In this document: in pieces, positions 4,192 to 27,062 of the stretch
How positions within the stretch are numbered: the stretch's first letter is position 1
Layout: the number at the start of each line of letters is the position of its first letter
Source: a virus
IMG/VR virus record: IMGVR_UViG_3300045988_094921
Location: 1-31,673 of that record
Direction: 5' to 3' (one strand)
Length of the DNA: 31,673 bases
Program-made: the position numbers and the translations under genes
The notes under the pieces: generated by a model
The model's database searches: none
Seen by the model: only the letters and a program-made list of their open reading frames with translations
Told to the model about the DNA's origin: nothing

Positions 4192-4242
4192 TGTCAGTTT
4201 TTATTTTTTCTTAGTACTTTGAGTGAGTAAAAAACTTGACAT
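4192..4242 (+). repeat. Conserved ~50-nt intergenic dyad element, copy C
   Basis: TGTCAGTTTTTATTTTTTCTTAGTACTTTGAGTGAGTAAAAAACTTGACAT starts 2 nt after the upstream stop codon. The arms TGTCAGTTTTTA and TAAAAAACTTGACA are inverted repeats. Confidence 0.8.
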
Positions 4243-4275
4243 TAAAGGAGGCTTAGGTCTCCTTTAATTATTTTA
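4242..4275 (+). terminator. Rho-independent terminator-like hairpin
   Basis: 9-bp stem TTAAAGGAG (4242-4250) pairs with CTCCTTTAA (4259-4267) around an 8-nt loop, followed by TTATTTTAAT. Confidence 0.55.
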
Positions 4276-4343
4276 ATACATTAGTAAATTGGTTTATATT
4301 TTAAGAAAAAGATATGTAAAACTAATGTAAATTGCTGTAAAAT

Positions 4344-4736
4344 ATGAATTATACTCTATTAATGCAAAATACAACTACTAAAGAAGTTTATACATTTGAT
4401 CTTGAAAATCAGAATTATTCTGAGAATATCTACTATAAGTTTGATATTACACTTCAAGAAGGAATGAGAGATGGTGAATATCAATATATTTTATTTACTA
4501 ATCCAAATAAATTTCAAGTTATAGTTGATGTAAACAATCCATTTAGATCAGAGTTATATGGCAATCCAGTTATTCTGGTTACATATAATAATACTCTTAC
4601 TAATGGTACTCAGATATTAGTTGCTGGTAAACCAATACCTATATTGGGAACAGGATTAATAAGAATTGGAGATTATGAGAATAATAATTATCAATACGAC
4701 AAACCTAATACATACGTAAGTTATGAGCGAAAATAA
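4344..4736 (+). CDS. Hypothetical protein (130 aa), first gene of the portal module
   Basis: Complete ORF. Its end overlaps the portal start by 14 nt. No motif recognised. Confidence 0.6.
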   Translation: MNYTLLMQNTTTKEVYTFDLENQNYSENIYYKFDITLQEGMRDGEYQYILFTNPNKFQVIVDVNNPFRSELYGNPVILVTYNNTLTNGTQILVAGKPIPILGTGLIRIGDYENNNYQYDKPNTYVSYERK

Positions 4737-5814
4737 AACAAAAGTTCAGTTAAGTGCTATTGATCCATTTATTGCAAGTAATATCGTATTACCTACAGAA
4801 ACTAAAGTGAGAGGAAAAGATTATGTAATGTGAGGAGAAGATAATAAATATCCATTATATCTATGGGATTTATATTTAAATGTTGCCACTCTCCAATCCA
4901 TTATTAATGGTTCTGCTGACTTTATTGTTGGTAACGATGTTAAATGTAATGCTCCAGGATTTGAGGTAGTTGTAAACAAGAAAGGTGAAACAATAGTTGA
5001 TATAATGAGAAAAATCACTATTGATAAGATGATATTTGGAGGTTATGCTATCCAAGTAATTAGAGATATGCTCGGAAGAGTTGCAGAGATCTATCATATT
5101 GATTTTATGAATGTAAGGTCAAGCGAAAAGAATGATATATTATATTATGCAACTGATTGGACAGCTTGGTCTGTAAAAGCTATAAAATATCCAAAATTTG
5201 GAGCTGGGGATGAAAATCCAGCTAGTATATTTTATAATAAAGGTTATATAACAAGAGGAGTATATCCTATTCCTGTTTATGGAGCTGCTATTTTATCTTG
5301 TGAAACTGAGAAAAATATTAATGAATTCCATTTAAATAACATCAATAATGGATTTATGGGTAATCTTATTATTAACTTTAATAATGGGGAACCTACAGAT
5401 GAAATTAGAGAGGAGATTGAGAGGAATATTAATGAGAAGTTCTCTGGTTATCAGAATGCTGGCAGAATATTGATTTCATATAATGCAGATGAGGCAAATA
5501 AGACTACTATTGAAAGATTAGATTCTGATGATTTTGATGAGAAATATCAATCATTATCTGAGAGAACCAGAGATCAAATATTCTGTGCCTTCAGAGCTAA
5601 TCCTTCGTTGTTCGGTTTAAACTATAGCTCAGGATTTAATGAAAATGAGTTTAATGAAGCATTTAAGCTATATAATCGTACTTTTGTACGCCCAATACAA
5701 TCAGAAATTTGTGACTCATTTGATAAAATCTTCGGCATTAAGAATAGTATTACTATTGAACCATTTAGTTTAACTCCAAAAGGAATGTCAGACAATGCAG
5801 AAAATGTTGAATAA
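4723..5814 (+). CDS. Portal protein
   Basis: The ATG at 4723 is in frame with track ORF 5005..5814 through one TGA (4831-4833, YVM-W-GEDNKYPLYLWDLY). 363 aa. The overall pattern (IINGSADFIVG..., MIFGGYAIQVIRD..., FMGNLIINFNNG..., SERTRDQIFCAFRANPSLFG) resembles phage portal proteins. Confidence 0.7.
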
Positions 5815-6447
5815 TTATACAGTGTACTGCCATAAGAATATAGCTGATAATAAATTATATTTTGGAATAACATCACTTACTTTAAATAATAGATGGGGAA
5901 CTAAAGGTCAAGGTTACAAGAATAATCTTTATTTTAGCAGAGCAATTAAAAAATATGGTTGAGATAATTTTGAGCATATTATAATTAGAGATAATCTTCC
6001 AGAAGCTTGTGCTAAGACTTTAGAAAAGATTCTGATTTATAAGTATAATACTAGAAATCCAAAATATGGGTATAATTTAACTGATGGAGGAGACGGTACT
6101 TGTGGATATTCTTTTTCACAAGATTATAAAGATAGTCTTAGAATTATAAGATCAGGAGAAAATAACTCATTTTATGGTAAACAGCATTCAGATGAAAGCA
6201 AGCGTAAAATGAGGGAGGCAAAACTCCTTGAAATAAAGGTATGAAACTCTCAGATAAAGAAAAACAACTAATTTCAGAACGTCAGTGCAAAAAAGTATAT
6301 AAGTATGATTTAGATGGTAATTTTATTTGTGAGTATAAATCAGCTAAGGAAGCTGGAGAGAAGAATAATGTAGATTCTTCTAGTATATCTAGATCTTGTA
6401 GAAAAAATAAACCCTGCAAAAATTATAAATATTATTATGGAATATAG
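5804..6447 (+). CDS. GIY-YIG homing endonuclease, copy 1, with a broken reading frame (needs a -1 shift at A-run 6220-6223)
   Basis: Frame 2 from ATG 5804 gives MLNNYTVYCHKN..KLYFGIT...AIKKYG(TGA)DNFEH...YGYNLTDGGDGT...FYGKQHSDESKRKMREAK. The C-terminal DNA-binding part (KTP(TGA)NKGMKLSDKEKQLIS...KVYKYDLDGNFICEYKSAKEAGEKNNV) is in frame 1 (track ORF 6241..6447). Frame 2 itself stops at 6269-6271. Confidence 0.7.
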
Positions 6448-7114
6448 AAATGTACTATTAATATCTGAAGATTATATAAAATCAGAATCCAATTTAGACA
6501 ATAATGTTTCTGGTAAATATCTTCAGTCAGCAATTAAACTTGCACAAGATATTGAGCTTCAGTCATTAATTGGAACTAAGCTCTTAGAAAAGATTCAGAA
6601 ATTAGTAATTGATTGAAAAGATCCAAATAAACCAGTTCATCCAATAGAACCTCCTATTTATGATCCTACTTCAATAGATGACCCAGAAAATCATAGATAT
6701 AAAGAATTGCTAGATTACTATATTCAGCCTTATTTACTTTATCAAGTATTAAGTGAGATTACTATACCCATCTCATTTAAGCTGAGTAATTTTGGGGTTA
6801 TGAGGACTGATGATGAGAAAGATTTAACTTCTGATATTAATCAAGTTAATCTTATTAAGAAGTATTATAGAGATAAAGCAGATTTCTTTAAAACTAGATT
6901 GCAAAATTGGGTAATTACATATTATAATGATTTTCCTGAATTGTATTCTTATAAACCTCTTAAAGATATGTATCCAAATATGTATTCAAGTTCATCTTGC
7001 ACTATTTGGTTAGGTGGAGCTAGAGGTAAAGGTTGGAGATATAATTCTTGTGAAGGTCCTCTGCAAAGAGCTTATGATTTCCCTTCAAGTGATAACAATA
7101 AAAAGAGTAAGTAA
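6437..7114 (+). CDS. Possible head-tail connector or adaptor protein
   Basis: The ATG at 6437 (MEYRNVLLISEDYIKSESNLDNNVSGKYLQSAIKLAQDIELQSLIGTKLLEKI) is joined to track ORF 6707..7114 through TGA 6614-6616. The N-terminal pattern and position after the portal resemble gp6-like connector proteins. The functional call is tentative. Confidence 0.5.
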
Positions 7115-7115
7115 A

Positions 7116-7541
7116 ATGACGTATTTTGAATTAATAAACAATTTAAAAGCTTGTGCTCTTGAAGAACCCAATATTAATTTTGTAGGAAGTAAGGATATAT
7201 ATGAACTTAATAGTATCCCAACTATTGAATATAATGTATTTTATATAACTCCAAATACATTTAATATGGATGAGGATACTATTACTTACTCTTTAAATCT
7301 CTATTTTATAGCAAGATGGGATGAAACTGATAATAATCAGCTTGAAGAGCAATCAGCTGGAATATTAGCATTAACTAATATAATTAACCGATTTAATAAC
7401 CAATATCCAGAAGTTGATATTTCTTATCCTTTAATTTTTACTCCATTTTATCAGAAGTTCAAAGATATTTGTACTGGAGTATTTGTTAGAGTTGATTTAG
7501 CTGTAGACAACACTCTGGGTACTTGTTCTGATAATATGTAA
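7116..7541 (+). CDS. Hypothetical structural-module protein (141 aa)
   Basis: The ATG at 7116 (MTYFELINNLK...) is internal to track ORF 7014..7541. The upstream extension overlaps the previous gene in another frame. Confidence 0.6.
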   Translation: MTYFELINNLKACALEEPNINFVGSKDIYELNSIPTIEYNVFYITPNTFNMDEDTITYSLNLYFIARWDETDNNQLEEQSAGILALTNIINRFNNQYPEVDISYPLIFTPFYQKFKDICTGVFVRVDLAVDNTLGTCSDNM

Positions 7542-8194: not shown

Positions 8195-8197
8195 GTT

Positions 8198-8359: not shown

Positions 8360-8808
8360 TGAAATATTTTACTATTAGTGAATTAACAAGATCTGATACA
8401 GCTTCTATTAAGAAGATAGATAATACTCCAAATAAAGAGATTACTGAACACCTTATAGAGTTAGTCGAGAAACTTTTAGACCCATTAAGAAGTGATTGGG
8501 CAGAGTATTGTGATGTTAATCGGTTGGGGAATCCAGCAATAAGTGTGAATTCAGGTTATAGATGTAATGAGCTTAATAAAGCTGTAGGAGGATCTTTGAC
8601 ATCTGCCCATCTAACAGGATATGCAGCAGATATAATTCCAAGTAACGGCCAAATGAAAGAATTTCAGGTTTGGATTACTGAAGCTATTGAAAAGTATGAT
8701 TTTGACGAATGCTTTATAGAAAGAAGTAGTACTGCTCACTGAGTGCATATTGCTTTATATAGTATTAAAGGATTACAACGAAGAAAGAAAGGTAATTTAT
8801 ATGTATAG
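8359..8808 (+). CDS. Endolysin, peptidase M15 (zinc D-Ala-D-Ala carboxypeptidase / L-Ala-D-Glu peptidase fold)
   Basis: [28 protein letters not shown] then ...ERSSTAH-(TGA 8740-8742)-VHIAL. The conserved W-x-H metal-ligand motif is spelled with TGA. The true stop is TAG at 8806-8808. Confidence 0.8.
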
Positions 8809-9391
8809 TGTATATGTTCATTTAAACAAGATTAATGGTAAGAAATATATTGGAATTACTTGTAAGAAGCCAGAGATACGATGGGCAAACGGTCTTGGCT
8901 ATAGAAAACAGCCATTTGAAAATGCTATTAAAAAATATGGATGAGATGGATTTGAACACATTATAGTTAAAGAAGGATTACCAGAAGCTTGTGCTAAAAC
9001 ATTAGAGAAGATTCTTATTTATAGATATAATACTCGTAATCTGAAATACGGTTATAATGCTACAGACGGAGGTGATGGCACATTAGGAATTACATTTACT
9101 CAAGAAAGAAAAGACAAGATAAGAGCTAAAAGTATTGGAAGACATCCATCAGAAGAAACTAGGAAAAAGATGAGTGATAGCCAGAAAGGAAGAGATTTGA
9201 GCTATTTAAATAATTCTTTTGGTAATAATCCAAGAGCTAAGAAAGTAGGTGCATATAAAGATGATATTCTTATTAAAGAATATGATTGTGCAGTTAGTGC
9301 TTCTTTAGATGTCGGAGTTCATAAAAATTCTATTGCTAAAGCAATTAGAGAAGGTTATAAAGTAAAAGGATTCAAGTGAAGATATGTTTAA
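8801..9391 (+). CDS. GIY-YIG homing endonuclease, copy 2
   Basis: [20 protein letters not shown]...AIKKYG(TGA 8942)DGFEH...[12 protein letters not shown]...[16 protein letters not shown]...KGFK(TGA 9377)RYV. Track ORFs 8750..8944 and 9170..9379 share a frame. TAA at 9389-9391. Confidence 0.85.
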
Positions 9392-9402
9392 TAAAAAAGA
9401 AA

Positions 9403-9430
9403 AGGAGGGCAAATAACCCTCCTATTTTCA
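9403..9430. terminator. Bidirectional rho-independent terminator between convergent gene blocks
   Basis: AGGAGGG (9403-9409) pairs with CCCTCCT (9417-9423) around a 7-nt loop. An A-tract lies upstream and a T-tract downstream, so it reads as a terminator on both strands. Confidence 0.75.
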
Positions 9431-9431
9431 T

Positions 9432-9575
9432 TTATTCCATTATTTCAAATAATTTATCATCTTCTTTAGGTATTAAATCTCCTGTTTGTAAGTCTACTAA
9501 AAACTTACTATTTTCTGGTATTACATATACATAATACACTCCATTTATACATACTTTATAGGTTTGGTATTTCAT
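9432..9575 (-). CDS. Hypothetical small protein (47 aa)
   Basis: Minus-strand ORF MKYQTYKVCINGVYYVYVIPENSKFLVDLQTGDLIPKEDDKLFEIME, packed 1 nt after the previous minus-strand gene. Too short for the track. Confidence 0.45.
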   Translation of the reverse strand: MKYQTYKVCINGVYYVYVIPENSKFLVDLQTGDLIPKEDDKLFEIME

Positions 9576-9953: not shown

Positions 9954-11672
9954 CTAATTTTTAAAGACATACTTTTTACCTATAATAGTATATCCATAAG
10001 ATCTGTTTCCATTCACTGATTTTTTAGTTACCTTAACTTCATAATATTTTGTAATATCAGTAGCTTTAGCATTAGTTTTATTAACTAAATCATAAGCTTT
10101 TTGTAGTATCTTTTTAATATCAGTATTAGAATACCACATACCTAAAGTTATATCTTTATTAAGTTTATTTGCCACTTTATTATCTACAGATTTATCTGAA
10201 GTTTTAATAAGTTCATCTTTTATTTTAGTAATACAGTATTTTAGAGTGGCCATTTTATTGAATCCAAGTTTAGTAATAGCATCCATTAACCAAGGGTATT
10301 TAATAAGAGCATCATCTAATTTTGGGGTGTTTACCTTATATAAGGTTTCATATTCCTCTCTTACTTCTTTAATTATATCTTTAAATGCTTTTGTTTTAGT
10401 ATTTAGATCTATTTTTATAGAATTATCATATTGTTCTACCACTTTATTAAATCCTTTATTAATATATTCCTTAGAAAGATTAGCTCTAGCAGAATACAGT
10501 CCCCTAGATACTTTAAAATTAAATAAATCAATTTTAGCCATATTAGGGTCAAATTCAAATACATCATCCCAATTTAATTTAATGTATGCATCAGAAGTAA
10601 ATTCTCTAAGTTTCTTTTTAGCTATCTCTGGAAGTTTATTGTATGCTTCTACAGCAATTTTAGTTTCTTCAATATTCTGGATATTAAGCTTTTTAAATTC
10701 TTCATAAGATATATCAGCATATCTTGTTGTAGAATAAATGTGAGTTATCCAATTAATATATTTACTATTTCTAATTCTACCAGCAATCTGCTGTATAGAA
10801 GTTGATATATCAAGTAATGTATTAGCTTTACTTGGATCAGATATAATTATTATCCTTCCATTTTCATCATAAATATCTGAACCTTCAAATACAGTTGAAG
10901 TTAATAAGTTTATTTTCTTAGGTTCATCTAAGACTGTTGAATTAGGAATTGACAGTTTAGTTTTATTGTTTTTGGAATATATAACTCTGGTATTATTAGA
11001 TGTTAATTTGGCTTTCTTAATAAGGTTCTTTATAAAGTCTACTGAATTAACGAATATGTAGGCGTTACCTTCAACCTGTCCGTTTAAAAATCCATTTATA
11101 AGTTTAATAGTAGAAGCTTCTACATTATCACATTTAACAGTTTGCACTTTTACATCTATAACATCATCCCATTCCTGCTTTACTAATTCTAAATCTTTTA
11201 ATTCATCTAATACAAACTCTTCCTCTAAAGGTGTTGCGGTCATAAATGTAAAATCTTTAAATAATTTATAATATTTAAGCACTGATTGAATAGCAGAGCT
11301 TCTAAAGCTATACTGATTAAAGAGAATATGATATTCATCAATTAAAATGCTAAACTCTTTAGGATTAATTGCAGAAATAACTTTATAAAGAGAATCATAG
11401 GTAACAATGATTTTAGGGCATTTAACACTATCTACATAATCTTTAATCTCTTTAATAGTAACACCAGCATAAACTCCAAATATCTTCTCAGTACGTCTTT
11501 CATTTGGATATTGTTGAAGTTTATTTTCAACTAAGCTAGTAAATGGAACACAAATAACATAAGGCTTATTGCATTCAATTGCCATTGAAGTTCCTCCACA
11601 TCCAACTTTTCCTTTATCAAATAAACAGTTAGTTGGCAACTCATTAATAATTTCATTTAAATATGTTTTCAT
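9954..11672 (-). CDS. Superfamily-2 DExH-box helicase-like protein
   Basis: 572-aa uninterrupted ORF. Walker A-like GKVGCGGTS, DEYH box (ILIDEYH) and motif III-like MTATP. All five Trp codons are TGG, with no TGA. Confidence 0.75.
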   Translation of the reverse strand: MKTYLNEIINELPTNCLFDKGKVGCGGTSMAIECNKPYVICVPFTSLVENKLQQYPNERRTEKIFGVYAGVTIKEIKDYVDSVKCPKIIVTYDSLYKVISAINPKEFSILIDEYHILFNQYSFRSSAIQSVLKYYKLFKDFTFMTATPLEEEFVLDELKDLELVKQEWDDVIDVKVQTVKCDNVEASTIKLINGFLNGQVEGNAYIFVNSVDFIKNLIKKAKLTSNNTRVIYSKNNKTKLSIPNSTVLDEPKKINLLTSTVFEGSDIYDENGRIIIISDPSKANTLLDISTSIQQIAGRIRNSKYINWITHIYSTTRYADISYEEFKKLNIQNIEETKIAVEAYNKLPEIAKKKLREFTSDAYIKLNWDDVFEFDPNMAKIDLFNFKVSRGLYSARANLSKEYINKGFNKVVEQYDNSIKIDLNTKTKAFKDIIKEVREEYETLYKVNTPKLDDALIKYPWLMDAITKLGFNKMATLKYCITKIKDELIKTSDKSVDNKVANKLNKDITLGMWYSNTDIKKILQKAYDLVNKTNAKATDITKYYEVKVTKKSVNGNRSYGYTIIGKKYVFKN

Positions 11673-11763: not shown

Positions 11764-11782
11764 GGCAGGATTTTCACCTGCC
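11764..11782 (-). terminator. GC-rich hairpin in the helicase leader (terminator or attenuator-like on the minus strand)
   Basis: GGCAGG pairs with CCTGCC around a 7-nt loop. On the minus strand it is followed by ACTTTTTAAC. It lies downstream of the two minus-strand promoters and upstream of the helicase. Confidence 0.4.
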
Positions 11783-11900: not shown

Positions 11901-11932
11901 CAAATATAAGAATAATTTTTTTAATCTACAAA
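11901..11932 (-). promoter_or_regulatory. Bacteroidota-type promoter P1 (TTTG-N20-TATATTTG), tandem duplicate of P2
   Basis: Plus-strand CAAATATA at 11901-11908 and CAAA at 11929-11932, with a 20-nt spacer. About 40 nt of flanking sequence is similar to P2, 81 nt away. Confidence 0.55.
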
Positions 11933-12406
11933 ATTTTTAGCACTTTTTCTTGTCCAAAGTTTTGTTAACTTTTTACCATTTTCTTTTTCATATCTTTGGT
12001 TAGCATATGTAATTCAATTCCAATTTAGTGCATTTAAAGAGATTGCTGCCCTACTTAAAGAAACCCCAGATAAACATAATTCTACTAATTTATCTATATT
12101 ATCATTATATCACTCTTTTTTACTCTGTTTATTTATTGTTACGTTATGTGCAGTTTTAAAATCATTCAGCAGCTCTACAATTAACTCATCTGGCAATTCT
12201 AATCATTCTGAATTACTTTTAGTTTTATATGCTCTATATTTATCCCTATAGTAATTTTCATCATCTCTAGTTCCATCTTTAACTATAAAAAATTCTATTA
12301 TTTCATTTGGAATAGCGTTCTTATACGAAGTTAGCCTACTACTTAAATTAGAAGTATATCCAACTTTAATGAAATTTGTCTTGGCTAGTTTAATTACGTA
12401 AATCAT
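11921..12406 (-). CDS. T5orf172/MUG113-type GIY-YIG-superfamily domain protein
   Basis: MIYVIKLAKTNFIKVGYTSNLSSRLTSYKNAIPNEIIEFFIVKDGTRDDENYYRDKYRAYKTKSNSE(TGA)LELPDE. This is the characteristic EWF/EWL motif. It continues through TGA at 12203, 12110 and 12014 to TAA (plus-strand TTA at 11921-11923). The track ORF N-terminal extension (12407-12514) is rejected. Confidence 0.7.
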
Positions 12407-12472
12407 ATTGTTTTTATTAATATATAATAAAAATACAAATAGTAATATTTTTTTGAAAAAATGCATAAAAAA

Positions 12473-12505
12473 TTTGGAGATTTGATTTTTTTTGTTGTAT
12501 ATTTG
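12473..12505 (+). promoter_or_regulatory. Bacteroidota-type early promoter (TTTG-N21-TATATTTG) for the rightward early operon
   Basis: TTTG at 12473-12476, a 21-nt spacer, then TATATTTG at 12498-12505. The first gene ATG is at 12544. Confidence 0.6.
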
Positions 12506-12543
12506 TAATATCAATAAAACAGGTTTAACTAAAATTTTTAATT

Positions 12544-12743: not shown

Positions 12744-12983
12744 ATGAAAAATATATTTAAATATGCAGTTATTATACTTTTAGTTTTAATGTGTATAGCT
12801 GGAATTAGAGGATATAAAGCTTATAACGAGTATCAAACTAAAACATTTGAATTAAGATTAGAAAGAGCAGAATTAAAACATAAATTAGATTCAGTAATGT
12901 GGGTTAATCCAGCAAGTGAAGAAGTATCTAATTTATATGAAGAATATTGTGATTTAACACTTAAAATTAATAATATAAAATAA
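12744..12983 (+). CDS. Hypothetical early protein with an N-terminal transmembrane helix (79 aa)
   Basis: The hydrophobic segment IFKYAVIILLVLMCIAGI is followed by a charged helical region. No TGA. Confidence 0.55.
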   Translation: MKNIFKYAVIILLVLMCIAGIRGYKAYNEYQTKTFELRLERAELKHKLDSVMWVNPASEEVSNLYEEYCDLTLKINNIK

Positions 12984-13420
12984 TGAAAACAGATATAAGA
13001 AGCTTAGTCTTTACAAAGAATCTATTTAAAGAGAAATTTAATATAGACATAGAATGATGTAAAGACGATTACTCCAGATATGATGGAACATTTAATTGGA
13101 ATGGAATTGATTATATAATTGAAGTTAAAAGGAGAAGATTTAATTCTAATAAATATCCAACCACTATTATTAATAGGGATAAATTTGATATGCTATCAAG
13201 AAATAATTCTATATTAGTAATAATATTTGATGATGGAGTATATATATTTAAAGATATAAAACAAGCCTTTATAAAGGATTCTATGAAATATGGTTGTTCT
13301 ACAACAGATTTTGGAGGAACTTATGGCTATTCATTAAAAACAGAGTTGTCTTTAAAGAAAGCCATTAAGATAGATGTAAATACAGAATTTAGTAATTATA
13401 TAGCAAATGATAGCCTATAA
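12983..13420 (+). CDS. Possible PD-(D/E)XK-family nuclease
   Basis: The TAATG start at 12983 is joined to track ORF 13190..13420 through TGA 13055-13057 (NIDIE-W-CKDDY). YDGTF...IDYIIEVKRRR resembles a D...ExK active-site arrangement. The functional call is tentative. Confidence 0.45.
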
Positions 13421-13901
13421 AAGAATACTTAATTTTGAAAACTACCAAATTGGAACTGATGGCTCAATATGAAGTTTAAGAGCATCAGTTCCAAAGAGGT
13501 TAAAACCTCAAGTAAAAACTAATGGGTACTTTACAGTAACATTATATAATAAAAATTTGAAAAAGAAGTGTTATATACATAGATTAGTAGCTGAAACTTT
13601 TATATCTAATCCGAATAACTATCCTTGTATAAATCATAAGGATGAAAATAAATCAAATAATAATGTAAGTAATTTAGAATGGTGTACTTATAATTATAAT
13701 AATAATTATGGAACTCATAATCTGCGAGCTGGATATAGTCATAAGAAACCAATACTGCAATTACTAAATGGAATAGTTATTAAAAGATGGGATTCAGCAA
13801 TAGATGCTGAGAGAGAACTAAATATACAATCTAGAAATATTGTAAAGGTTCTTAAAGGGCAGCGAAAAACAGCAGGAGGATATATGTGAACATATGAGTA
13901 A
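13407..13901 (+). CDS. HNH homing endonuclease, copy 2
   Basis: MIAYKRILNFENYQIGTDGSI(TGA)SL (NUMOD4-like), HRLVAETFISNP...INHKDENKSNNNVSNLEWCT (this W is TGG), ending GGYM(TGA 13887)TYE with TAA at 13899-13901. Confidence 0.85.
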
Positions 13902-14202
13902 TAACGAAATTGTAGAAAAGTACTATCCATTTATTATGGAACTTAAGCAAAAATTTGGTGCAGATGATGACTGTGTTCAAATGATTTTTGTAGAAATACT
14001 AGAGTATTCAAATCCAAAATTAAATCAGCTTGATAGCAAAAATGAATTGAAATTTTGGATTACAAGATTATTTAAGAATTATTGGTTTAGTAAAACAAGT
14101 AGATATTACTATACCTATAAGAAATATTATGAGATTGTTAAAGAACCACTTGAACAACAAAATGACGAATTGGAGGATTGATTAAATGAAACGGAAGATT
14201 AA
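13894..14202 (+). CDS. Sigma-70/ECF-family sigma factor, region 2 only (N-terminal half)
   Basis: ...CVQMIFVEILEY...ELKFWITRLFKNYWFSKTSRYY matches the region 2 pattern (...WL..IA+N...D..R+). Under code 4 it reads through TGA 14179-14181 to TAA 14200-14202. About 102 aa, with no region 4. Confidence 0.55.
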
Positions 14203-14439
14203 TATTGACGATTTACTTACTGAGTATGAAATAGACTATAGTATGTTTACAAATATGGATGATAGACTATTAAGTATATATCCAAAATGACTTGAGCTTA
14301 ATAAGGCAGATAAGACAGTAATCATATTATATGCTGAATATCACAGTTATAGAGAAGTGGGAAGAATATTAGGAATTAGTCATACTACCATAGCAAGGTG
14401 TATAAGTAATATTAGAAATAAAATATGTGGAAGGATATA
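14186..14439 (+). CDS. Sigma-70/ECF-family sigma factor, region 4 only (C-terminal HTH half)
   Basis: ...LNKADKTVIILYAEYHSYREVGRILGISHTTIARCISNIRNKI is a typical region 4.2 helix-turn-helix. It sits in a separate frame, with a TAA immediately upstream of its ATG. One TGA at 14288-14290. It is preceded by GGAGGA, the only strong SD-like sequence I saw. Confidence 0.55.
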
Positions 14440-14910
14440 GCTAATTATGAAGGTCTTTATAAAGTAAATAATATCGGAGAAGTTTATAGTATAAGGACAA
14501 ATAAATTTATTAAACCTACTATTAGAAATAACTACTTAGCAGTAGGACTATGAAAAAATGGAAAAGTTAAAATGAAGTCTATACATAGATTAGTAGCTGA
14601 AACATTTATACCAAATATATATAATTTACCAGAAGTAAATCATATTAATGAAGATAAGACTGACAATAGAGTCGAAAATCTAGAATGATGTACTAGGAAA
14701 TATAATACAAATTATGGAACTAGAAATAAAAAGATTTCTTCTTACCTTTCAAAACCTGTAGCTCAATATGATCTTAACGGAACTCTAGTTAAAAAGTATA
14801 ATTCTATTAAAGAAGCTGCGAAAGCTTTAGGTAAGTGTGATTATTCAATTCGAGCTTGTTTATATGGCAAATATAAAACAGGTTATAATTATGTATGAAG
14901 ATTATGTTAG
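14425..14910 (+). CDS. HNH homing endonuclease, copy 3
   Basis: MWKDIANYEGLYKVNNIGEVYS (NUMOD4), HRLVAETFIPN...[17 protein letters not shown](TGA)CTRKYNTNYGTR, with a C-terminal YDLNGTLVKKYNSIKEAAKALG module. Three in-frame TGA. TAG at 14908-14910. Absent from the standard-code track. Confidence 0.85.
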
Positions 14911-15658: not shown

Positions 15659-16019
15659 ATATCTTTATGCAGCAAGATTATTTAATAAAGGGTGGTCCAG
15701 AAATAAAGTAAGTGAGGAACTTCAAACTAAATATGGAGTTGGACAAACTACTGCTGCAAGATATATTGGAGAAGCTTATAAGATAATTGCTGAAAAGAAT
15801 GATAACCTTATAAAAAATCTTAGACATATACAATTAACAAGATTGGAAACATTATTGGATATTGCTATTAGTAAAAATGATGTAAGATCTGCTACTGAAG
15901 TTATTAAAACAATAAATTCTATGTTTGGATTAAATCAACCAGAAATTCAAGTTAATATTCAAAATAATGAATGCCAATTTAAATTTGGAGATCCTATTAT
16001 AAATGACAAGGATATATAA
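15567..16019 (+). CDS. terS: Terminase small subunit (putative)
   Basis: N-terminal basic GRPKK segment followed by an HTH-like region (WSRNKVSEELQTKYGVGQTTAARYIGEAY). It lies immediately upstream of the large terminase subunit gene and overlaps it. Confidence 0.6.
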   Translation: MKVKNQELPKKIGRPKKEEVKEDQIDEQKTKYLYAARLFNKGWSRNKVSEELQTKYGVGQTTAARYIGEAYKIIAEKNDNLIKNLRHIQLTRLETLLDIAISKNDVRSATEVIKTINSMFGLNQPEIQVNIQNNECQFKFGDPIINDKDI

Positions 16020-17250
16020 AGGATATAGGCCATTTATGTACCAATATAAGGTTCATATAGCTATGGCAGATGCTTATAGATCTGGAAGGATATTTACAAT
16101 TAAAGCTAAACGACAAGTAGGTAAATCTTTCTTAGCTGAAAATGAATTATTACGATTTGCAATTAACTATCCAAAAACAGTCAATTGTATAGTAGAACCT
16201 ACTCTTGGGCAATCAAGAAAAGTGTTTAAAGAAATAGTTAATGCTATAGCTGAAGCAGATATTCTTAAACGTAAGAATGAAACTTTGCTTGAATTAGAGT
16301 TTAATAATGGCAGTTCTATATTATTTAGATCTGGAGAACAAATGGATTCGTTACGAGGATTCTCTGTAAGTGGATTACTTGTATTAGATGAGGCTGCTTA
16401 CTTAAAAGATGAAGTATTTGAAATTATTAAACCTACTACTGATGTGTGGTCTGCTCCAATATTAATTATTAGTACTCCAAGGTTCCGAGAGGGTTTCTTT
16501 TATGACTGCTTTACTAAAGGGTTAGATCCGAAATATGACAAGTTCTATAAATCATTTGATTGAGCATTAGAAGATACATCTATGCTTTTAGATAAAGAGA
16601 AGTTAGAGATGTATCGACTTACAACCTCAAAAAATAAATTTAGAACCGAATACTTAGGGGAATTTGCAGATGATGATGGTTGTCTCTTTAATAATATATC
16701 TAACTGCATAATTGAGAAAAAACCAGATTATCAGAGTCTTTATATAGGAATAGACTGGGCTACTGGGAGTGGTAAAGACTATACTTGTGTTACTGCTTTA
16801 AATGAAAATGGGCAGATGGTCTTTATAAAGTATTTTAACGACAAAACTCCAACAGAACAAGTTGATTTACTGACAAATATATTTACTGAGTATCAGGGAT
16901 TTATAAAGATAGTTCAAGTCGAACAAAACTCAATTGGTAGTGTCTTCTATGATATGTTAGTTCGGAAGAATCCGAAAATCAGGATTATACGATTCTTAAC
17001 TACTAATAAGAGTAAGGCAGATATAGTTAATAAGCTTCAAGCTGCTTTGGAGAATGAAAAGATAGGATTATTAAAAGATGATAAACTTTTAAATGAGTTA
17101 AGACTATATGAAGCTTCATATAATCCAAAAACTGGAAATGTTAGTTATAATGCTCCATCTGGATTTAATGATGATACAGTAATTTCATTAATGCTAGCCT
17201 ATGACTCATTAAATACAACTAAAGGACATTATAATATTAAATTTAAATAG
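16003..17250 (+). CDS. terL: Terminase large subunit
   Basis: Walker A KRQVGKS and Walker B LLVLDEAAY. Track ORFs 16003..16563 and 16582..17250 share a frame and are joined by TGA 16561-16563 (KSFD-W-ALED). The nuclease half has FRTEYLGEF and GFNDD. Confidence 0.85.
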
Positions 17251-17251
17251 T

Positions 17252-18036
17252 ATGATAAAATCTTGGAATGAAATGAATTTAGCTCATTATAGAAAACTAT
17301 TGGATGTAATTAGAAAAGAATGAGAAAATGAATTAGATATGAATTTAGCTATGGTATCTGTACTTAGTGATATTTCTTTAGAAGAAATTCAAAATATGGA
17401 GCTGAATAAATTACAAGAATTAATTAACAATCTTAAATTTGTAGAGAGTACATATAAACCTAAAACTCCAGAAACTAAATATATTATTGGAGACAGGGAA
17501 TATAAAGTCTTTTTTAATGTTAATAAGATGACTGCAAGTCAATACATAGACTTCCAGAATTTTTATAAGAAGTATGATGATTATATGCCAAATCTAGCTG
17601 CTTGCTTTTTATTACCAGAAGGTAAGAAGTATGGAGAAGATTATGATCCTTTGGATGAAGCAGAGTTTTTGAATAATCATTTAACAATTGATGTATTTTC
17701 AGATATAATGTTTTTTTTTGTAAACTTATTGCGACTATCAACTCTGAGTACCCTACACTCTTCGGAAAGGGAGATGAAGAAGAGACTAAGGAAAACCAAG
17801 GACAAACTGGAAAGGAGAAAGATTCTAAGGAGTCTGATACAGATGAGACGGTTACTCCTTTTACTCAAAAATGAAGCTGAATTATCTGAATAGATAAAGT
17901 AAGTGAGGTTACTAAATTTAATTGGCATCAAGTTTATGATATGCAAATTAAAGAGTTCTTAAATACAATTTGTTATGTTATAGATAAAGCTAATGAAGAA
18001 AATAGACAAATTGAAGAATGAAAACGAAAACATTAA
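17252..18036 (+). CDS. Structural-module protein needing a -1 shift at a T9 run (possible tail assembly chaperone-like frameshift gene)
   Basis: ATG 17252 (MIKSWNEMNLAHYRKLLDVIRKE(TGA)ENELD...) runs into track ORF 17339..17893. After T9 (17711-17719) the -1 frame gives a protein-like 105-codon continuation (CKLIATINSEYPTLFGKGDEEE...PFTQKWSWIIWIDKVSEV...) ending at TAA 18034-18036, just before element D. Confidence 0.55.
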
Positions 18037-18088: not shown

Positions 18089-18090
18089 TT

Positions 18091-18120
18091 AATAGGGAGT
18101 AAGTCTCCCTATTTGTGTTT
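18091..18120 (+). terminator. Rho-independent terminator-like hairpin
   Basis: AATAGGGAG (18091-18099) pairs with CTCCCTATT (18105-18113) around a 5-nt loop, followed by TGTGTTT. Confidence 0.55.
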
Positions 18121-18156
18121 AGATACTAACCTATAAATTAATATATTTTAACAAAA

Positions 18157-18645
18157 ATGAATATTCAAGAACTAAATTTCCCAAATTTAAATGAGTTATT
18201 AAGACGTTGAGGAGAACTCATAATTTCTTTATATAGACAGGAATTGGTTCAAACAAGGACTGATGATACTGGATCATTAGGTAATAGTTTAAATTACATT
18301 GTTGAGACCCAAAATGGGGATTATGAAGTTAATGTTAGTTTATTAGATTATTGGAAATACGTTGAAGAAGGCAGACATTCTGGTAAGTTCCCTCCACTTA
18401 ATGATATAAAGAGTTGGATTAAAACTAAGCCAATTATTCCCAGACCTTATAATGGTAAGTTACCAACAATAGATCAGCTTACATATTTAATTGGGAGGAA
18501 GATACATCTTCAAGGAATTCAAGGTAAACATCCATTATCAAATACTATAGAATATATAGAAAATAACTATATGGAGCTTCTTGATGATGCTATAACTAAA
18601 GATCTTCAAGGACAAGTAGATTATTATGTATTTAAAAACTTTTAA
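18157..18645 (+). CDS. Possible HK97 gp10-like head-tail joining or tail completion protein
   Basis: The ATG at 18157 is joined to track ORF 18244..18645 through one TGA (LLRR-W-GELI). TGSLGNSLNYIVE...LLDYWKYVEEGR resembles the gp10-family TG.L..S...YA..VE.G pattern. Confidence 0.5.
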
Positions 18646-20830: not shown

Positions 20831-23800
20831 ATGAGAAAGAATATTAAATTATTTATTGCAGGAAAAGAAGTACATTGTTCTGAAGGCATATCATTACCAA
20901 TGACTTATACTGTAGAAGATTTTCAGAATCCAACAATAGTAAAAAATTCATTCAGTAAGACTATAAGCATTCCAGGAGACAAAAATAATAATAAGATTTT
21001 TGGAGAGATTTATAAGTTAGATAGATTTCTCCATATAAAAGAAGGTAATTTCTCTGGCGTATATTTTGATCCTTCAAAACGAGTTGATTTTGGAATTTAT
21101 AATAATGGCTATTTAGTTGAATCTGGATATATGCAATTAAATAGCATATCTATAAAACAAGCTGTCATTACTTATAATATTACTTTATATGGAGGATTAG
21201 GAGATTTCTTCTATGGACTTAAATATAAAGAAGATGGTACTATTAGGACTCTTGCTGATTTACAATACTTTGTAACTGATGAAGATGGGAATACACTTCC
21301 TGCTGATACTGAACTTAATTTTTATATTAACAAAGATTTTGTAAATACTTGTTTTGACTGAAGTAAAACGAATGAAGGAAGTCAAATATATGATTATTTG
21401 ACATTTATTCCAGCATATAATGGTTTATATGAAGATTTTGATAATGAAACTTGTTTAATAAATACTAATGAAAATAGTATATTTCCTACTAGTAAGACAG
21501 ATTCAGGAGTTACATATACACCTTATAATGGGTATGGATTAGCTAAATTAAATAGAGCATATACAGAATGGGAGATGAGAGATCTTAGAAGTTATATGCA
21601 AAGGCCAGCTTTAAAATTGAGTAAGTTAATTGAAACTATCTGTAGAAAAGAGAATTCTGGATATGATGTAGTATTTGATCCTTCATTTTTTAATTGAAAT
21701 AATCCGTATTGAAGTAAATCCTTTGTAGCTTTACCTTTATTATCTAATCTAGTAAGTGACGAAGAAGATGTAACAGAATCTGGCTTTTTAGTAGAAGATA
21801 GTAAATATAATTATCAGGTAGGTATAAATAAAGGAGAATCTACATCAAGTCCTTTAAAATTATCCATTGCATCACCTGATATTGTTTACGATTCTGGAAT
21901 AATTGATTTAAGTGAGGCTGGATTTAGAAAAAGCCTTTCTACAACTTTTTATTTTAAGTTAAAGTTTAATCGAACTGCAGGAAATGTTGGGGATAGATAT
22001 TTTTTTGGATTTAGAAGGTATTTTAGCTCCTCTGCTCCTCCTTTTTATTCAGCATATAGAGGATACGCTGATGTTTGGCTAACAATTACTAATGAAGTAG
22101 ATGATACTATTTATACTTCTGAAATACATAGATTTACAAATTCAGGAACCTACTCACATCCTATAGCTAATGGGGTTAATCATTTTGGGTATTTTCAAAA
22201 TAATGTATTTTATGATACTTCTTCATTAACTAATGATTTTGTTATTAATATTACAAATTTTAAAATTCCAATTAATAAAATTAAAATTAAACTTAATGTT
22301 GTATGATCTACTGGAAATAGTGTTCGCCCTACTGGATTATTAAGTGAAGTAATAGAAAGAGGAGAGGATTACCAAGCTATTCCAAAAGGAGATCTTATAG
22401 TAGATCTTACTTCTCCCATTGAAATTACTACTTCTACAGAGGTACTTCAAAGTAATGCATTATTAACTAAAAAATTATTATTAAAAACAGAACAATCTCC
22501 TGCTGATTACTTATTGAGTTATGCAAAACTATTTGGGTTATATTTTACAAAAGATATTGATAGTAAAACAATTAGAATATATACTAGAAATAATTTCTTT
22601 AAGAATATAATCTCTGATTGGAGCAAGAGAATAGATTATTCTAAAGATTTCAATGTAAATCCAATATTATTTGATAAGAAGTGATATAGAATGAGTTCTG
22701 AAGGTCCAGAAACTTATTTTTATAAAAAATACAATAAGGAATATTCTATATTATATGGTCAACAAAGATTAAATACTGGTTATAATTTTAATTCTGAAAC
22801 AACTGAACTGTATAGTGATAATATATATGAAAATATAGTTTCTGCAAGATGGAGAAATAAATATTTTAGAAATTTTTACAATTCTTCTTCCCTTGTAGTT
22901 CCTGCATTTATGAATGATAATATTACCTATACATTATTTAATAATAGCACTACTGAACTTAAGACTATAGATCAAGAGTTATACGGAGCTAATTTTATAG
23001 ATCCCTCTAAAACCACAGAATGATATAAAATCGCAGGTAATGATATATTTGCCAAAAATGTATTTTTCTCAATTGATGGTAATGAGGAATCTTTAGAGGA
23101 TATCTCTCAATCCCTAGTATTCTTTAACGGTAATGTTCCTTTAACTGATGTAAAAGGAAATGAAGTAACATATTGAATTACAGATGATCTTACAGAAATG
23201 AACATATTAAATGATCAGGAAATGTGTTATATATCTACTAAAAGTGAGAAAGATATTAGGGGGAATAAAATTGCTATAAAGAGAACTGTATTACCTCAAT
23301 TTACAAGGTATACCGTTTCGTCCTCTAATGTTACTGCTTCTTGAGATTTTGGATTACCACAAGAGATTTATATTGATGATATAACTTATAATATCGGAAG
23401 TACTATTTATAGTAGATTCTGGAGTGAATTTTATAATGATCAATTTGATGTAAATACTAAAAAAGTTACCTGCTTTGTAAGATTGGATGATTTAGATGTT
23501 AAGTATGATTTACTTAGACAGTTCTATTATTTTGAAGATTCTTACTGGGTACTTAATAAGATTGACGCTTATGATATTAATTCAGATTCTACTGTTAGAT
23601 GTGAATTTATTAAAGTTCAAGATATTAATAGTTATTTAGCTGGAGTTCAAAATCTAGGTGAATATATATCATTTGATGATTCAGATCCAGTTGTAGATTA
23701 TAAAGCTGGGACTAAAAAGATTACAGTTACTTCTAATATTCCTTGAGAATTAGGATGATATAGTCCAAATGAAATTGTAAGCATTACACCTGAATCTGGG

Positions 23801-24187
23801 CAGCCTGGAGAAACAGAATTGACAGTTACATATAATGAGAATACTACATATGACCAAAGGAGTTTCTATTTTAGTCTTTATAAACAAGGAAGTATAAATG
23901 GCCCTCAATGTATGTTTACTCAAACTCCAGACCCAAATAAAGCTATTCTTATTACAGGAAAGCTTCAAACTTCTACTGGAGGTATTCCTTCTGGTGTTAA
24001 TCAGATTCTAACTGAAAATGATAATGTCTTAAATGTCACTTATATGAGAGATGATGGAAGTTATAGAATATATGCTCAAAATGGAGTTCAATTTTTATTT
24101 AGAGTATCTGACGGACCAACAGGAACAATTAAATATACAGAGAATTTAACACTAACAGAAGATACTGTTAAAAATATTACAATCTAA
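20831..24187 (+). CDS. Very large tail or baseplate protein (1118 aa) with a C-terminal BACON-like domain, probable host-recognition or tail-tip protein
   Basis: Track ORFs 20831.., 21398.., 22691.., 23483.. and 23819..24187 all share frame 2 and are joined through about ten TGA codons. The C-terminal IP(TGA)ELG(TGA)YSPNEIVSITPESGQPGETELTVTYNENTTYDQRSFYFSL looks like a BACON domain. TAA at 24185-24187 overlaps the next ATG. Confidence 0.7.
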
Positions 24188-26946
24188 TGGCACAAACAGA
24201 AATTAAAAAAGTAATTAGTGTAGATACTAAATCAAGTAATAAATCAATAAATTCTTTAAAGAAAGATATTGATGCATTAACTAATTCGCTGAATGATTTA
24301 GAGATTGGTACTAAGGAATATAATGAAACTCTTTCATTACTTGGTAAGAGACAATCAGAATTCAATAAAATTAATGAGCAGATAGCAAGATCTTCGAGAA
24401 CTACTGCTCAAAGATTTGAAAGTGTAGCTAAAATATCCACTGGCTTAGCTAGTGGATATGGTGCTGCAACTGCTGCTATTACTTTATTTGGGAAAGAATC
24501 AGAAGATTTAAATAAAGTAATGGTTAAGTTACAATCTACTATTGCTTTAGTTCAAGGTGTGGGAGGTATAAAAGATTTATTAGAAGAATTGCCTACTTTA
24601 GGTAATTGGTTTAAGAAATTAACTGATTTTATCTCTCCATTTAATACAGGATTGAATAATGCTGCCAAAAACCTTAATCAGATTGATACATCTAAGCTTA
24701 ATAGCATTGGCACATCTGTTGGTAATGTTGGAACTGAATTAGGTAATATCTCTAAAGTAGTCAAGGATTTAGAAGGCACCAATATTAATCTAAGAGGTGG
24801 AATGGTTCAGGGTATGCTTGGGACTCCTGCTGAAATATCTGCTTCTAATAAAAGTGTCTCTAATACAATTCCGATTATAGGTAAATTAGGAGAAACTGCA
24901 AAAAAGTCCTTTGAAGAAGTAAAACCTACATTTACTACAGTTGCTGAATTTTTAAAGGAAGCAGCAAAAGAGACTGGAACTCCAGCAGAGAGAATGCAGA
25001 AAGCTGCTAAACGTTTAGGTGTAGATCTTAATGAATTAAAGGAAAATGTAGAAAAAGGCATTCCAACTTTGCGAAAAGGAGCAGAGGCTCAGAAAGCAAT
25101 GGCTGAAGCTTCAGAACAAGCTGCTTCTGGAGTAGGTAAAGTTAAAACTGCACTTAAAACTATTGGTAATGTAACTGTATGAATTGCATTAGCTACAGCT
25201 ATTGGAGTAGCTATTAATAAGATAATAGAGTATATATCCTCAATAAAATCAGCTGAAAAGGAGGCTGCTGAATTTAGAAAGTCTATTACAGATACTACTA
25301 ATCAGATTGCTTCTAAATCTATAGCTATCTTTAGAGAGTTACAAATAGCTTACGAAAGAGTTGGAGATTCTGCAGATGCTAAGCGTAAGTTTATAGAGCA
25401 ATATTCCGATAAGATTAAAGAGACTGGTTTAAATATCACTAATGTAAAGACTGCAGAAGATGCGTTTGTAAATAATACAGGCAATTATGTAGAAGCCTTA
25501 GAAGCAAGAGCTAAAGCACAAGCTATTGAACAGGCTGCAATTAAACTTTATGAGGAGTATTTAAACAAACGTACTGAACTGGAGAATCAAATTTCTGATA
25601 CAAGTTTTGGAGAGGCATCTGCTTGGCAGGCTTTTAAAGCTACAGCAATGTTCTGAAAAGATTATTCAAATACAATTTATGAGTATACAAAGCAAAATAA
25701 AGAGAATACTTATAAACAGTTGGATGATTTAAATAAAGACATTGAGAAAAGGCTTAAAAAGCTATTTGAGGATGTAGCAGATACTAATAAAAAGTATGGT
25801 GGGTTCTTTAATATTCCAACTATTACAAAGAACACTACTGAAGCTAAGAAGGTAATAAATGAATTTGATGAATGGCTTCAAAAGAGATTAGAGGATAAAG
25901 ACCCAGTAGATGAACTTGAAGATGAATATATTAGACTATTAGCACTAGCTATTAAAAATAATAGAAGTATTGAAGAAGTTGAGGCTTGGCATCAAGAAGA
26001 GCTGAAGAAAATTAGAGATAAGGCTAGAGAAGATGAAGAAAATGCAAGAAAAAGTGCTGCGGATAAAGCTTGAGATGATCTGCAGACTGAGTTAAAAAGA
26101 ATGCGCGAGGCAAGGTATGATATAAAAGATCCATCTTTAGAAATTCCTAAAACTCAATATACACAAGGATTTGCCAAAATATTTGGATTAAGTGGTGAGT
26201 TCTCTTATTCAAGCAAAAAAGACATAGAGGGATATAAAGATCGTTTATTAGGAACAGATACTGAAGAAGGTTCTATAGATAAATATAATAATCAAATAAA
26301 AACAAGATTGGAGGAGCAGAAGTCTTTTCTATTAAAACAATTAGAAAATGAGACTTTAACAGCTGATCAGAGAAAACTTATTAAACTAGAATTAGATTCT
26401 ATTGATGAGCAATTAACTGAAAATGAAATAGACAGAGAAAATAAGAAAAACAAAGTTAGAGAAAATGTTAATAAGCAATATCAAGAATCTATAAAAGCTC
26501 GCCTTGATCTAGCATCAAAGGTTGCAGGAAGTATGGCAACTATATGAGGAGAGGAAAGTAAAGTAGGTAAAGGATTCGCAACAGCTCAAGCTTTAATTGA
26601 TACATATAGTGCAGCTAACAGTGCTTATTCTGCAATGGCTGGTATTCCAGTTGTAGGTCCAGCTTTAGGTGCTGCCGCCGCTGCTGCAGCAATTGCAGCT
26701 GGTATAGCTAATGTTAAAAAGATTTGAGAAGTAGATGAAACTAGTGGAGCATCTGCATCTTCTGCTTCTGCATCTGTTGCAGCACCTGCTGCTTTAAACA
26801 CTACTCCTGTAGAATACACTCGAAACTTACTTGGTGATAAAGAGACTGATTTATTAAATGAACCTGTTAAATGCTATGTAGTTGAGAGTGATATTACTAA
26901 TGCTCAAACTAAAGTTGCAGTTACAGAATCAAATGCAAGTTTCTAA
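24187..26946 (+). CDS. Tape measure protein (919 aa)
   Basis: Track ORFs 24187.., 25720.. and 26101.. are in one frame, joined through TGA at 25180, 25654, 26071, 26545 and 26725. Long coiled-coil-prone Lys/Glu-rich sequence plus a C-terminal Ala/Gly-rich hydrophobic segment (AMAGIPVVGPALGAAAAAAAIAAGIANVKKI). TAA at 26944-26946. Confidence 0.65.
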
Positions 26947-26947
26947 A

Positions 26948-26967
26948 GTGAGTAAAATTTCTGACAC
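26948..26967 (+). repeat. Half copy (3' arm only) of the conserved intergenic element
   Basis: GTGAGTAAAATTTCTGACAC lies 1 nt after the tape measure stop codon. It matches the GAGTAAAAA..TGACAC half of the element. Confidence 0.6.
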
Positions 26968-27025
26968 ACTACTATGTAAGTTGCTGATTATCAGTGCTTA
27001 TATAGTAGTGCTATGTCTATTTTAT
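26967..27025 (+). terminator. Long hairpin plus T-rich tract (terminator of the tail operon)
   Basis: 14-bp stem CACTACTATGTAAG (26967-26980) pairs with CTTATATAGTAGTG (26997-27010) with one G-T pair. It is followed by CTATGTCTATTTTATTTTTA, which is also the 5' arm of element E. Confidence 0.6.
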
Positions 27026-27062
27026 TTTTATTATATAACCTAGTTGAGTAAAAACTTGACAT
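27014..27062 (+). repeat. Conserved ~50-nt intergenic dyad element, copy E
   Basis: TGTCTATTTTATTTTTATTATATAACCTAGTTGAGTAAAAACTTGACAT, 79 nt upstream of the capsid-module start codon. Confidence 0.8.

Follow-up and report, generated by a model that had tools for sequence, protein, structure and literature searches.

Short structured repeats dispersed between genes are well known in bacteria, with the REP, ERIC and Correia families, and in T4-type phages, and they have hardly been described in small tailed phages from metagenomes. The Correia or NEMIS elements of Neisseria are bacterial miniature inverted-repeat transposable elements (MITEs) with outward-facing promoters, and the early and late mRNAs of phage T7 carry hairpins processed by RNase III. 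In T4-type phages, the promoter-early stem-loop (PeSL) cassettes are composite terminator/promoter motifs (PMC2839356, PMC4122927). Here, we analyzed 31,673 nt of viral DNA (IMG/VR record IMGVR_UViG_3300045988_094921, positions 1 to 31,673; hereafter the window), in which an earlier note had pointed out a dyad-symmetric element of about 50 nt repeated at the boundaries between gene blocks. The element is a repeat that is selected, or at least homogenized, as a hairpin and not as an operator, and in behavior it is closest to bacterial extragenic palindromes of the REP/ERIC type and to the stem-loop part of T4-type PeSL. Its copies and the hairpin that lies between two of them are the following.

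4192 to 4241, plus strand: copy C, 1 nt past the stop codon of a fiber gene of the leucine-rich repeat (LRR)/DUF285 type (3219 to 4190); arms TGTCAG and CTTGACA; 75.8 bits
9902 to 9951, minus strand: copy A, 2 nt past the stop codon of a helicase-like gene; arms TGTCTA and TAGACA, a perfect pair; 61.8 bits
11698 to 11746, plus strand: copy B, antisense to the local genes; arms TGTCTA and TTGACA, mixed, with one T.T mismatch; 66.4 bits
18039 to 18087, plus strand: copy D, 2 nt past the stop codon of the frame ending at 18036, with a terminator 3 nt further on; 76.4 bits
26948 to 26966, plus strand: 3' half copy (GTGAGTAAAATTTCTGACA), 1 nt past the stop codon of the tape-measure gene
26967 to 27010, plus strand: long A/T-rich hairpin (14-bp stem) separating the half copy from copy E, whose left arm serves as its T-rich tail
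27014 to 27061, plus strand: copy E, in the gap separating the tape-measure gene from the protease/capsid block; arms TGTCTA and TTGACA, mixed; 54.8 bits

Like REP/BIME and ERIC sequences, the element is a short imperfect palindrome, strictly extragenic, often just past a stop codon and inside operons or at their ends; it is found in either orientation, at about one copy per 6 kb, evolves in concert and is predicted to form the hairpin expected to stabilize a 3' end. It differs from REP/BIME in being carried by a 31-kb phage genome in 3 to 5 copies, against hundreds in bacteria, in its length (48-50 nt), its very A/T-rich composition and its conserved loop bases, and in lacking the GTAG head; no copies were found in species genomes and no RAYT (REP-associated Y1 transposase) or other Y1 transposase was detected in Pfam scans, which covered most, not all, of the open reading frames (ORFs) of the window. 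As with PeSL, we observed a repeated intergenic sequence in a highly mosaic phage family, alongside a stem-loop terminator and a sigma-70-like promoter, with paralogous terminator-promoter stretches after C, after D and at 30432 to 30522. Unlike PeSL, the dyad is an extra piece upstream of the terminator and is neither terminator nor promoter, since it has no U-tract and, save at copy E, no -10; it does not lie at the tested indel or replacement breakpoints (17250 and ~18650 in the D region), and no mini-circle or indel between copies was seen. The T7 hairpins share with the element an intercistronic position, a length near two helical turns, interrupted by bulges or internal loops, repetition at gene-block borders and a protective 3' hairpin that would remain. 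Unlike them, it is A/U-rich with G.U pairs and also occurs antisense, and the same Pfam scans of most window ORFs gave no RNase III. Finally, the Correia/NEMIS elements resemble it in their terminal inverted repeats (here 13-nt arms), intergenic location, a transcribed hairpin that is a potential RNase III substrate, and ends able to supply promoter boxes, as at copy E; unlike them, the element is one third the size, with no TA target duplication visible and no sign of new insertions.

Copies of the element in the window

With the ends of the copies trimmed to ACA, the element measures 48-50 nt and its arm centers lie ~44 bp apart. We searched the window, with filters off, using a covariance model trained on 30 distinct members of the family. 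Exactly five full copies were recovered, at 55-76 bits (E = 8e-9 to 2e-13); the remaining matches at E < 0.8 were opposite-strand readings of C, A, B and D, and the next distinct match had E = 0.8. No convincing copy was found within coding sequence in this search, all five copies being intergenic, and each occupies a non-coding gap where a gene block ends, usually beginning 1-2 nt past a stop codon, with a rather weak intrinsic terminator next and then a promoter-like -10. All five exact occurrences of the word TGAGTAAAAA in the window fall within copies, and the exact left-arm pattern is present in four copies, E having one mismatch. The five full copies and the 3' half copy listed in the earlier note are all present, and its observation that C, A, D and the half copy lie just past stop codons holds under genetic code 4, with gaps of 1-2 nt. 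Its remark that it knew of no described family with this sequence also agrees with the Rfam scan of the window, which gave 0 matches at E <= 1.

Copy B is flanked by a minus-strand terminator on its right and by the start of the helicase-like gene (11672) on its left. Beyond copy A, the next small ORF begins after 20 nt. In the predicted fold, the half copy pairs with the left arm of copy E. At copy C, the last codons of the fiber gene (TAAAAACTGAAC, encoding KNWT; 4160-4176) are complementary to the left arm (4187-4203), and the resulting hairpin, which would span the stop codon, is probably coincidental.

Arm pairing and folding of the element

Within the window, comparing C and D (TGTCAG...CTTGACA) with A (TGTCTA...TAGACA) reveals a single pair altered on both sides, from A-T to T-A, and copies B and E join the left arm of A (TGTCTA) to the right arm of C and D (TTGACA), breaking this covarying pair. 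The mirrored arm changes that had been proposed from the window are therefore weakly documented there, with one pair only. Across related genomes, by contrast, the co-variation stood. We gathered 41 distinct copies from ~40 related human-gut phage genomes through TerL and motif scans of viral contigs, and observed the compensatory arm pairs TGTCAA/TTGACA, TGTCTA/TAGACA and TGTAAC/GTTACA. In an alignment of 30 sequences, 90% of the cells pair and five pairs are altered on both sides; the covariation score was reached by 0/500 shuffles, and slid registers pair at 37-57% only. The D copies of two relatives (L013 and L008) are identical save for an A-T to T-A change at one pair. Arms of a second type (type 2, TGTAAC/GTTACA), found at sites B, D and E, differ from those of type 1 (TGTCAA/TTGACA) at two pairs. 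Both types are found together in the same genomes (L003, L006, L012, L024 and L025), and no type 1/type 2 chimera was seen among the 41 distinct copies. Moreover, half-sites are often unequal yet still pair (TGTCAG vs TGTCAA). Taken together, the aligned copies show two 13-nt arms (TGTCAA-TTTTTA and TAAAAA-TTGACA) that are kept complementary.

Since the changes are compensatory and the arm types coexist without chimeras, we consider the element to be an imperfect-palindrome hairpin and not the operator of a dimeric protein: coexisting compensatory arm types are what would be expected of base pairing, contrary to such an operator. Of the two forms of selection on the dyad that had been suggested, the hairpin is thus favored and the dimeric protein site is not supported. 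The proposed site for a phage sigma factor fares no better, as arm sequences differ within a genome and the sigma factor lacks Pfam support; its supposed halves correspond to a frame (13894-14202) with no Pfam or PHROG match and to an HTH_50/NUMOD1-type helix-turn-helix (14186-14440) with sigma-70 region 4 below threshold. An arm type tracking a genome-specific trans factor was also rejected, types 1 and 2 sharing genomes.

The two strands of the element do not fold equally. On the strand with GAGTAAAAA, invariant G.U wobble pairs lengthen the stem to ~16-20 bp. The inner stem opposes TTTATTT to GAGTAAA and its T.G wobbles are invariant; therefore, the strand bearing GAGUAAAAA folds better. 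Mean folding energy was -12.0 kcal/mol for the sense and -7.4 kcal/mol for the antisense strand, the sense strand being more stable in 37/41 distinct copies. Folding z-scores in the window went down to -4.5, the tandem dyad and terminator hairpins gave predicted folds with z = -4.5 and -5.3, and a 12-bp stem is still predicted for the inverted D copy.

Distribution and evolution in related phages

The related contigs, of 29-33 kb, originate from human-gut assemblies. In 32 related loci we observed only five sites, all syntenic and all intergenic. The element is restricted to one genus (TerL at least 80% identical). It was absent from syntenic sister phages with TerL identities of 56%, 63% and 77%, in which the C, D and E positions are tight junctions, with one plain terminator, and relatives with 42% TerL identity had no homologous or analogous element. 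A motif pattern scan of 185,579 species genomes gave no copies and six chance matches in unrelated taxa, and relaxing the motif in a scan of viral contigs brought a flood of chance matches and one new true copy. One of the relatives with 42% TerL identity (L033) has its own four-copy intergenic motif, TTTTTTGTATATTTG, at 404-441, 3143-3180, 5820-5857 and 9498-9535, which resembles the Bacteroidota -7 promoter element and may be a hint at the hosts of the wider group.

The element is dispensable, and it varies among its carriers. Copy A, present in the lineage of the window, is absent from two genomes (L005 and L012) that retain the helicase-like gene. A search for empty sites with joined flanks was too noisy in such A/T-rich DNA and was usable at the empty copy A site only; no target-site duplication was visible between filled and empty copy A sites, this being the one presence/absence site, with the same five sites in all genomes. 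Copies A and B are lost together where another replication module replaces the helicase block. In L013 (5300-7170) and L014 (4790-6660), an HNH gene and the gene of a 248-aa protein stand in place of this block and of both copies; iteron-like direct repeats (ATTCAGTACCC...; ~6300-6340 in L013) precede the two genes, and the whole looks like an alternative replication module. Some copies have decayed, their arms being non-complementary and their GAGT lost: one lies at site B of L018 and another, with no terminator, at site D of L025. Orientation also varies: among the 27 related loci with a copy D, it is on the plus strand in 13 and inverted in 14, the inverted form always being of type 2 (TGTAAC/GTTACA). 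Copy B is on the plus strand in all alleles, though its genes run on the minus strand. The half copy is kept in relatives with type-1 arms in copy E and absent with type-2 arms.

The type-2 copies at B, D and E are 88-90% identical to one another and 78-82% identical to their positional counterparts, and copies A, B and E of the window share a common subtype (TGTCTA + CTATA(T/C)AC). As the copies cluster by subtype and not by site, they evolve in concert; copy replacement or ectopic gene conversion keeps the copies at different sites alike, and the mixed arms of B and E resemble partial conversion tracts. Conservation across the D block, in 100-nt windows, is 84-88% at the element against 51-78% in the flanking genes, and an identical inverted type-2 D element was found in alleles with very different flanks. 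Identity in the D region breaks at the gene borders 17250 and ~18650, with the element inside the swapped block, contrary to the suggestion that the dyad is a recombination boundary. One breakpoint (11807) coincides with the right edge of the copy B terminator, the sole such coincidence. Overall, the genus restriction, the dispensability, the orientation flip at D and the concerted evolution go beyond what the earlier note had described.

Terminators and promoter-like sequences beside the copies

The signals found next to the copies are listed below.

4241 to 4268, plus strand: intrinsic terminator, directly adjoining copy C
4273 to 4300, plus strand: promoter-like TTAATA-N16-TATATT after the copy C terminator, called from position only
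11764 to 11782, minus strand: intrinsic terminator, 17 nt right of copy B, ending the T5orf172-domain gene
18091 to 18113, plus strand: intrinsic terminator, beginning 3 nt after copy D
18118 to 18147, plus strand: promoter-like TTTAGA-N18-TATATT downstream of the copy D terminator, with its end 9 nt short of the ATG at 18157, called from position only
4243 to 4343, 18089 to 18156 and 30432 to 30522: paralogous cassettes of a terminator and a promoter-like sequence (TTnAnA-N16-19-TATATT)

The downstream hairpins noticed earlier exist: they are ordinary, rather weak terminators, on the plus strand after C and D and on the minus strand beside B. The C and D cassettes are related in sequence (z = 3.7), as are the D cassette and the one at 30441 (z = 5.5), where, unlike at C and D, the dyad is missing. 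In two of the three cassettes, 9-15 nt separate the -10 from the ATG of the gene; in the one after copy C, a two-codon ATG-TAA (4314-4319) follows the -10 at 13 nt and the gene start at 4344 follows it at 43 nt. The three cassettes suggest a PeSL-like punctuation with short or absent leaders. Sister phages do not have them at the corresponding junctions.

The right arm of copy E forms a putative sigma-70-like promoter, TTGACA-N16-TATATA (TATATA at 27078-27083), and in two relatives (L025 and L045) copy E carries a perfect TTGACA-N17-TATAAT; type-2 E copies have neither this promoter nor the arrangement of half copy and long hairpin. In one allele of copy B (B2), the left arm reads, by eye, TTGACA-N16-TAAATT, with 9 nt between its end and the start ATG of the helicase-like gene. 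The sigma-70 spacing of 16-18 nt between -35 and -10 was found at the type-1 copy E and the B2 allele only, and not at C, D, A or the type-2 copies. All promoter calls are putative ones made from position, and the promoter scan as a whole was not above chance. The word TTATATTTTA was rejected as an over-represented promoter word (25 found vs 33 expected) and is kept as a positional observation only. A Bacteroidota -33/-7 promoter was rejected by eye, its spacing being wrong. The dyad itself as an intrinsic terminator was also rejected: it has no U-tract, with a U-rich run after copy A only, and the terminator scan does not call it.

Genome context

The gene order is overall that of a small tailed phage, with fiber-like genes upstream of copy C, small genes before TerL and the tail block after it.

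up to 4190: fiber-like LRR/DUF285 genes, the last one at 3219-4190, upstream of copy C
4723 to 5814: portal gene
12514 to 9430, minus strand: leftward block with the T5orf172-domain gene, the helicase-like gene and three small ORFs
9954 to 11672, minus strand: helicase-like gene (572 aa)
12983 to 13420: gene of a PD-(D/E)XK-like protein
16003 to 17250: TerL gene
24187 to 26946: tape-measure gene, the last of the tail block
27141 to 30431: protease, scaffold and capsid genes
2618-3217, 5795-6271, 8750-9391, 11921-12514, 13407-13901, 14425-14910 and 27733-28344: free-standing homing-endonuclease-type genes

The window has a G+C content of 28% and is coding only with TGA read as an amino acid (code 4), the summed ORF length rising from 6,092 to 10,426 aa on switching to this code; conserved tryptophans of HNH (NLEWC) and GIY-YIG enzymes (KYGWD) are encoded by TGA. 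Despite code 4, the tRNA scan of the window gave 0 tRNA genes. TGA usage is uneven, with none in the protease-scaffold-capsid block (27141-30431) or the helicase-like gene (9954-11672) and frequent use in the tail genes, and a Shine-Dalgarno sequence was seen at 0 gene starts in the window. Upstream of copy D (17252-18036), coding is split between the overlapping frames 17252-17893 and ~17677-18036; the C-terminal peptide (...NTICYVIDKANEENRQIEEWKRKH) is kept in relatives, and the region may reflect a programmed frameshift or a mis-called small gene.

No close cultured relative was found, with no DNA match, no capsid-protein match and TerL at most 30% identical, and the search of species genomes with TerL for a host or prophage gave no matches. 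The seven homing-endonuclease-type genes comprise three HNH/NUMOD4, three GIY-YIG and one T5orf172 gene; gain and loss of such genes explains most indels and most of the breakpoints outside the D region between close relatives. Two long contigs, of 148,631 nt (L025) and 175,808 nt (L234), include the ~31-kb phage; their readable stretches are plain phage sequence, so that they were rejected as host evidence and may be concatenated strain assemblies, not prophages. The ends of several family contigs coincide exactly with a repeat copy, which would be expected of repeats that interrupt assembly.

Interpretation of the element

The reading that we favor, tentatively and at somewhat less than an even chance, is that the family is a structured intergenic repeat of 48-50-nt imperfect palindromes working via its fold, as a 3'-end or processing hairpin; a role in stability or processing of the 3' untranslated region would be the most economical function. 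Once transcribed, the element would give the upstream message a stable 16-20-bp A/U-rich hairpin beside the stop codon, in tandem with a modest terminator, and this hairpin would protect the message from 3' exonucleases. Alternatively, it would mark a processing point on messages that escape the terminator or have none (copy A and type-2 E copies), and either role would count most where the terminator is weak or missing. The lower stem, being a true palindrome, still forms in inverted copies, and in some lineages an arm may also have been recruited to serve as a TTGACA -35 box, at copy E and in the B2 variant. The five matches at E <= 8e-9, all intergenic, count in favor of this reading, as do the arm pairing, the strand asymmetry, the position past stop codons and the conservation or homogenization of the element.

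Several points weigh against it. The function, and the RNA role above all, is one that we purely infer. Every allele of copy B, and D in about half of the cases, runs antisense to the genes around it and yet retains the GAGTAAAAA asymmetry, which a purely sense-RNA function leaves unexplained; the hairpin that B would form on the strand that is transcribed is weak (-4.8 kcal/mol, z = +0.3). The RNAalifold consensus is limited to the outer six pairs, because bulge positions vary among copies. The unpaired central TAC and GAGT are conserved, which suggests sequence-specific recognition by something. The covariation of the arms could come in part from hairpin-templated correction or from different master copies and not from selection. 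Lastly, sister phages are without the element and decayed copies persist, therefore any benefit would be small and a selfish element fits equally well. It is because the asymmetry on the non-sense strand, the conserved loop bases and the dispensability oppose the folded-hairpin function that we hold it so tentatively; these three facts fit a selfish or nearly neutral element, and less so a protein site on DNA.

Such a selfish or nearly neutral element would be a MITE- or REP-like miniature palindrome that entered the ancestor of the genus and spread, in either orientation, to five safe intergenic sites, where its replacement, inversion, loss or decay would not depend on the flanks, any RNA effect being incidental; we regard this as unlikely, though it comes next in line. 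It would account for the confinement to the genus and the absence from syntenic sister clades, for a copy A that is present or absent, for copy D in both orientations with only the ~50-nt element swapped between alleles of otherwise similar flanks, for the clustering by subtype and for the decayed copies in L018 and L025; the orientation of the copies also matches the DNA strand (C, B, D and E all plus) as well as it matches transcription. What it leaves unaccounted for is a means of movement, as the Pfam scans gave no transposase, RAYT or recombinase and no target-site duplication was visible. Nor does it explain why the ~40 genomes hold five fixed sites only and no new insertion, why the 185,579 species genomes hold no copy, and why no other part of the D block is as conserved as the element.

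We find it improbable that the element is a site on double-stranded DNA bound at operon borders by a phage or host protein (operator, transcription roadblock or insulator), with recognition through the TGT..ACA arms, the phased T/A tracts and GAGTAAAAA. Such a site would work in either orientation, as copy B and the inverted D copies would require, and would explain the conserved unpaired TAC and GAGT, the T5/A5 tracts that flank the center and recall the phi29 p4 sites, and the promoter-like -10 found downstream of all copies. The distance to that -10, however, ranges from ~11 to 65 nt, arm centers ~44 bp apart come with a variable element length (48-50 nt), and no regulator was identified among the window proteins; the arms differ within one genome, change by single compensatory pairs and pair even when the half-sites are unequal.

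The remaining readings are minor. That the element is a promoter module, each arm being an A-tract UP element with an outward -35 box (TTGACA) driving the neighboring gene, is highly unlikely: it would suit copy E, with its perfect forms in L025 and L045, and the B2 left arm, but the arms of C, D and A have no usable -10, a terminator directly follows C and D, and type-2 arms read GTTACA, with no -10 at the type-2 E copy. A nut- or put-like antitermination signal, or a linker for module shuffling, has the least chance of all: the terminators that come soon after C, D and the half copy, the high mosaicism of the family and the potential of dispersed 50-nt repeats as recombination substrates would suit it, whereas B is always antisense and D antisense in 14/27 loci, no boxA/boxB or other Rfam match was found, the D breakpoints lie at gene borders and most others at homing-endonuclease genes, and no deletion or inversion between copies was seen. 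Besides the lambda nut and HK022 put sites, rejected for the same antisense copies and lack of Rfam match, two described families were set aside. Mycobacteriophage stoperators are 13-14-bp asymmetric repressor sites in dozens of copies with an orientation tied to transcription, against a 50-nt dyad in 3-5 copies, with untied orientation and no repressor found. Integron attC sites have RYYYAAC/GTTRRRY cores used by IntI, to which type-2 arms are only partly similar, and the Pfam scans gave no integrase.

Significance

The ~40 natural genomes already offer compensatory mutants, inverted copies, empty sites and decayed copies, and allow a direct test between hairpins that shape mRNA ends and selfish passengers. 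In practice, such repeats break the assemblies of this abundant human-gut phage and provide a handy marker of the genus. The case also illustrates how a phage lineage can gain a terminator-promoter punctuation that its relatives lack. A bolder possibility, which we consider doubtful, is that a phage-borne miniature hairpin element is truly mobile or self-homogenizing without a recognizable transposase, being moved or converted by HNH/GIY-YIG nucleases or by hairpin-templated strand switching. If true, this element would install operon-end hairpins, and sometimes -35 boxes, in either orientation, and would be a phage counterpart of REP/REPIN that drives the rewiring of regulation in a gut phage with TGA as a tryptophan codon.

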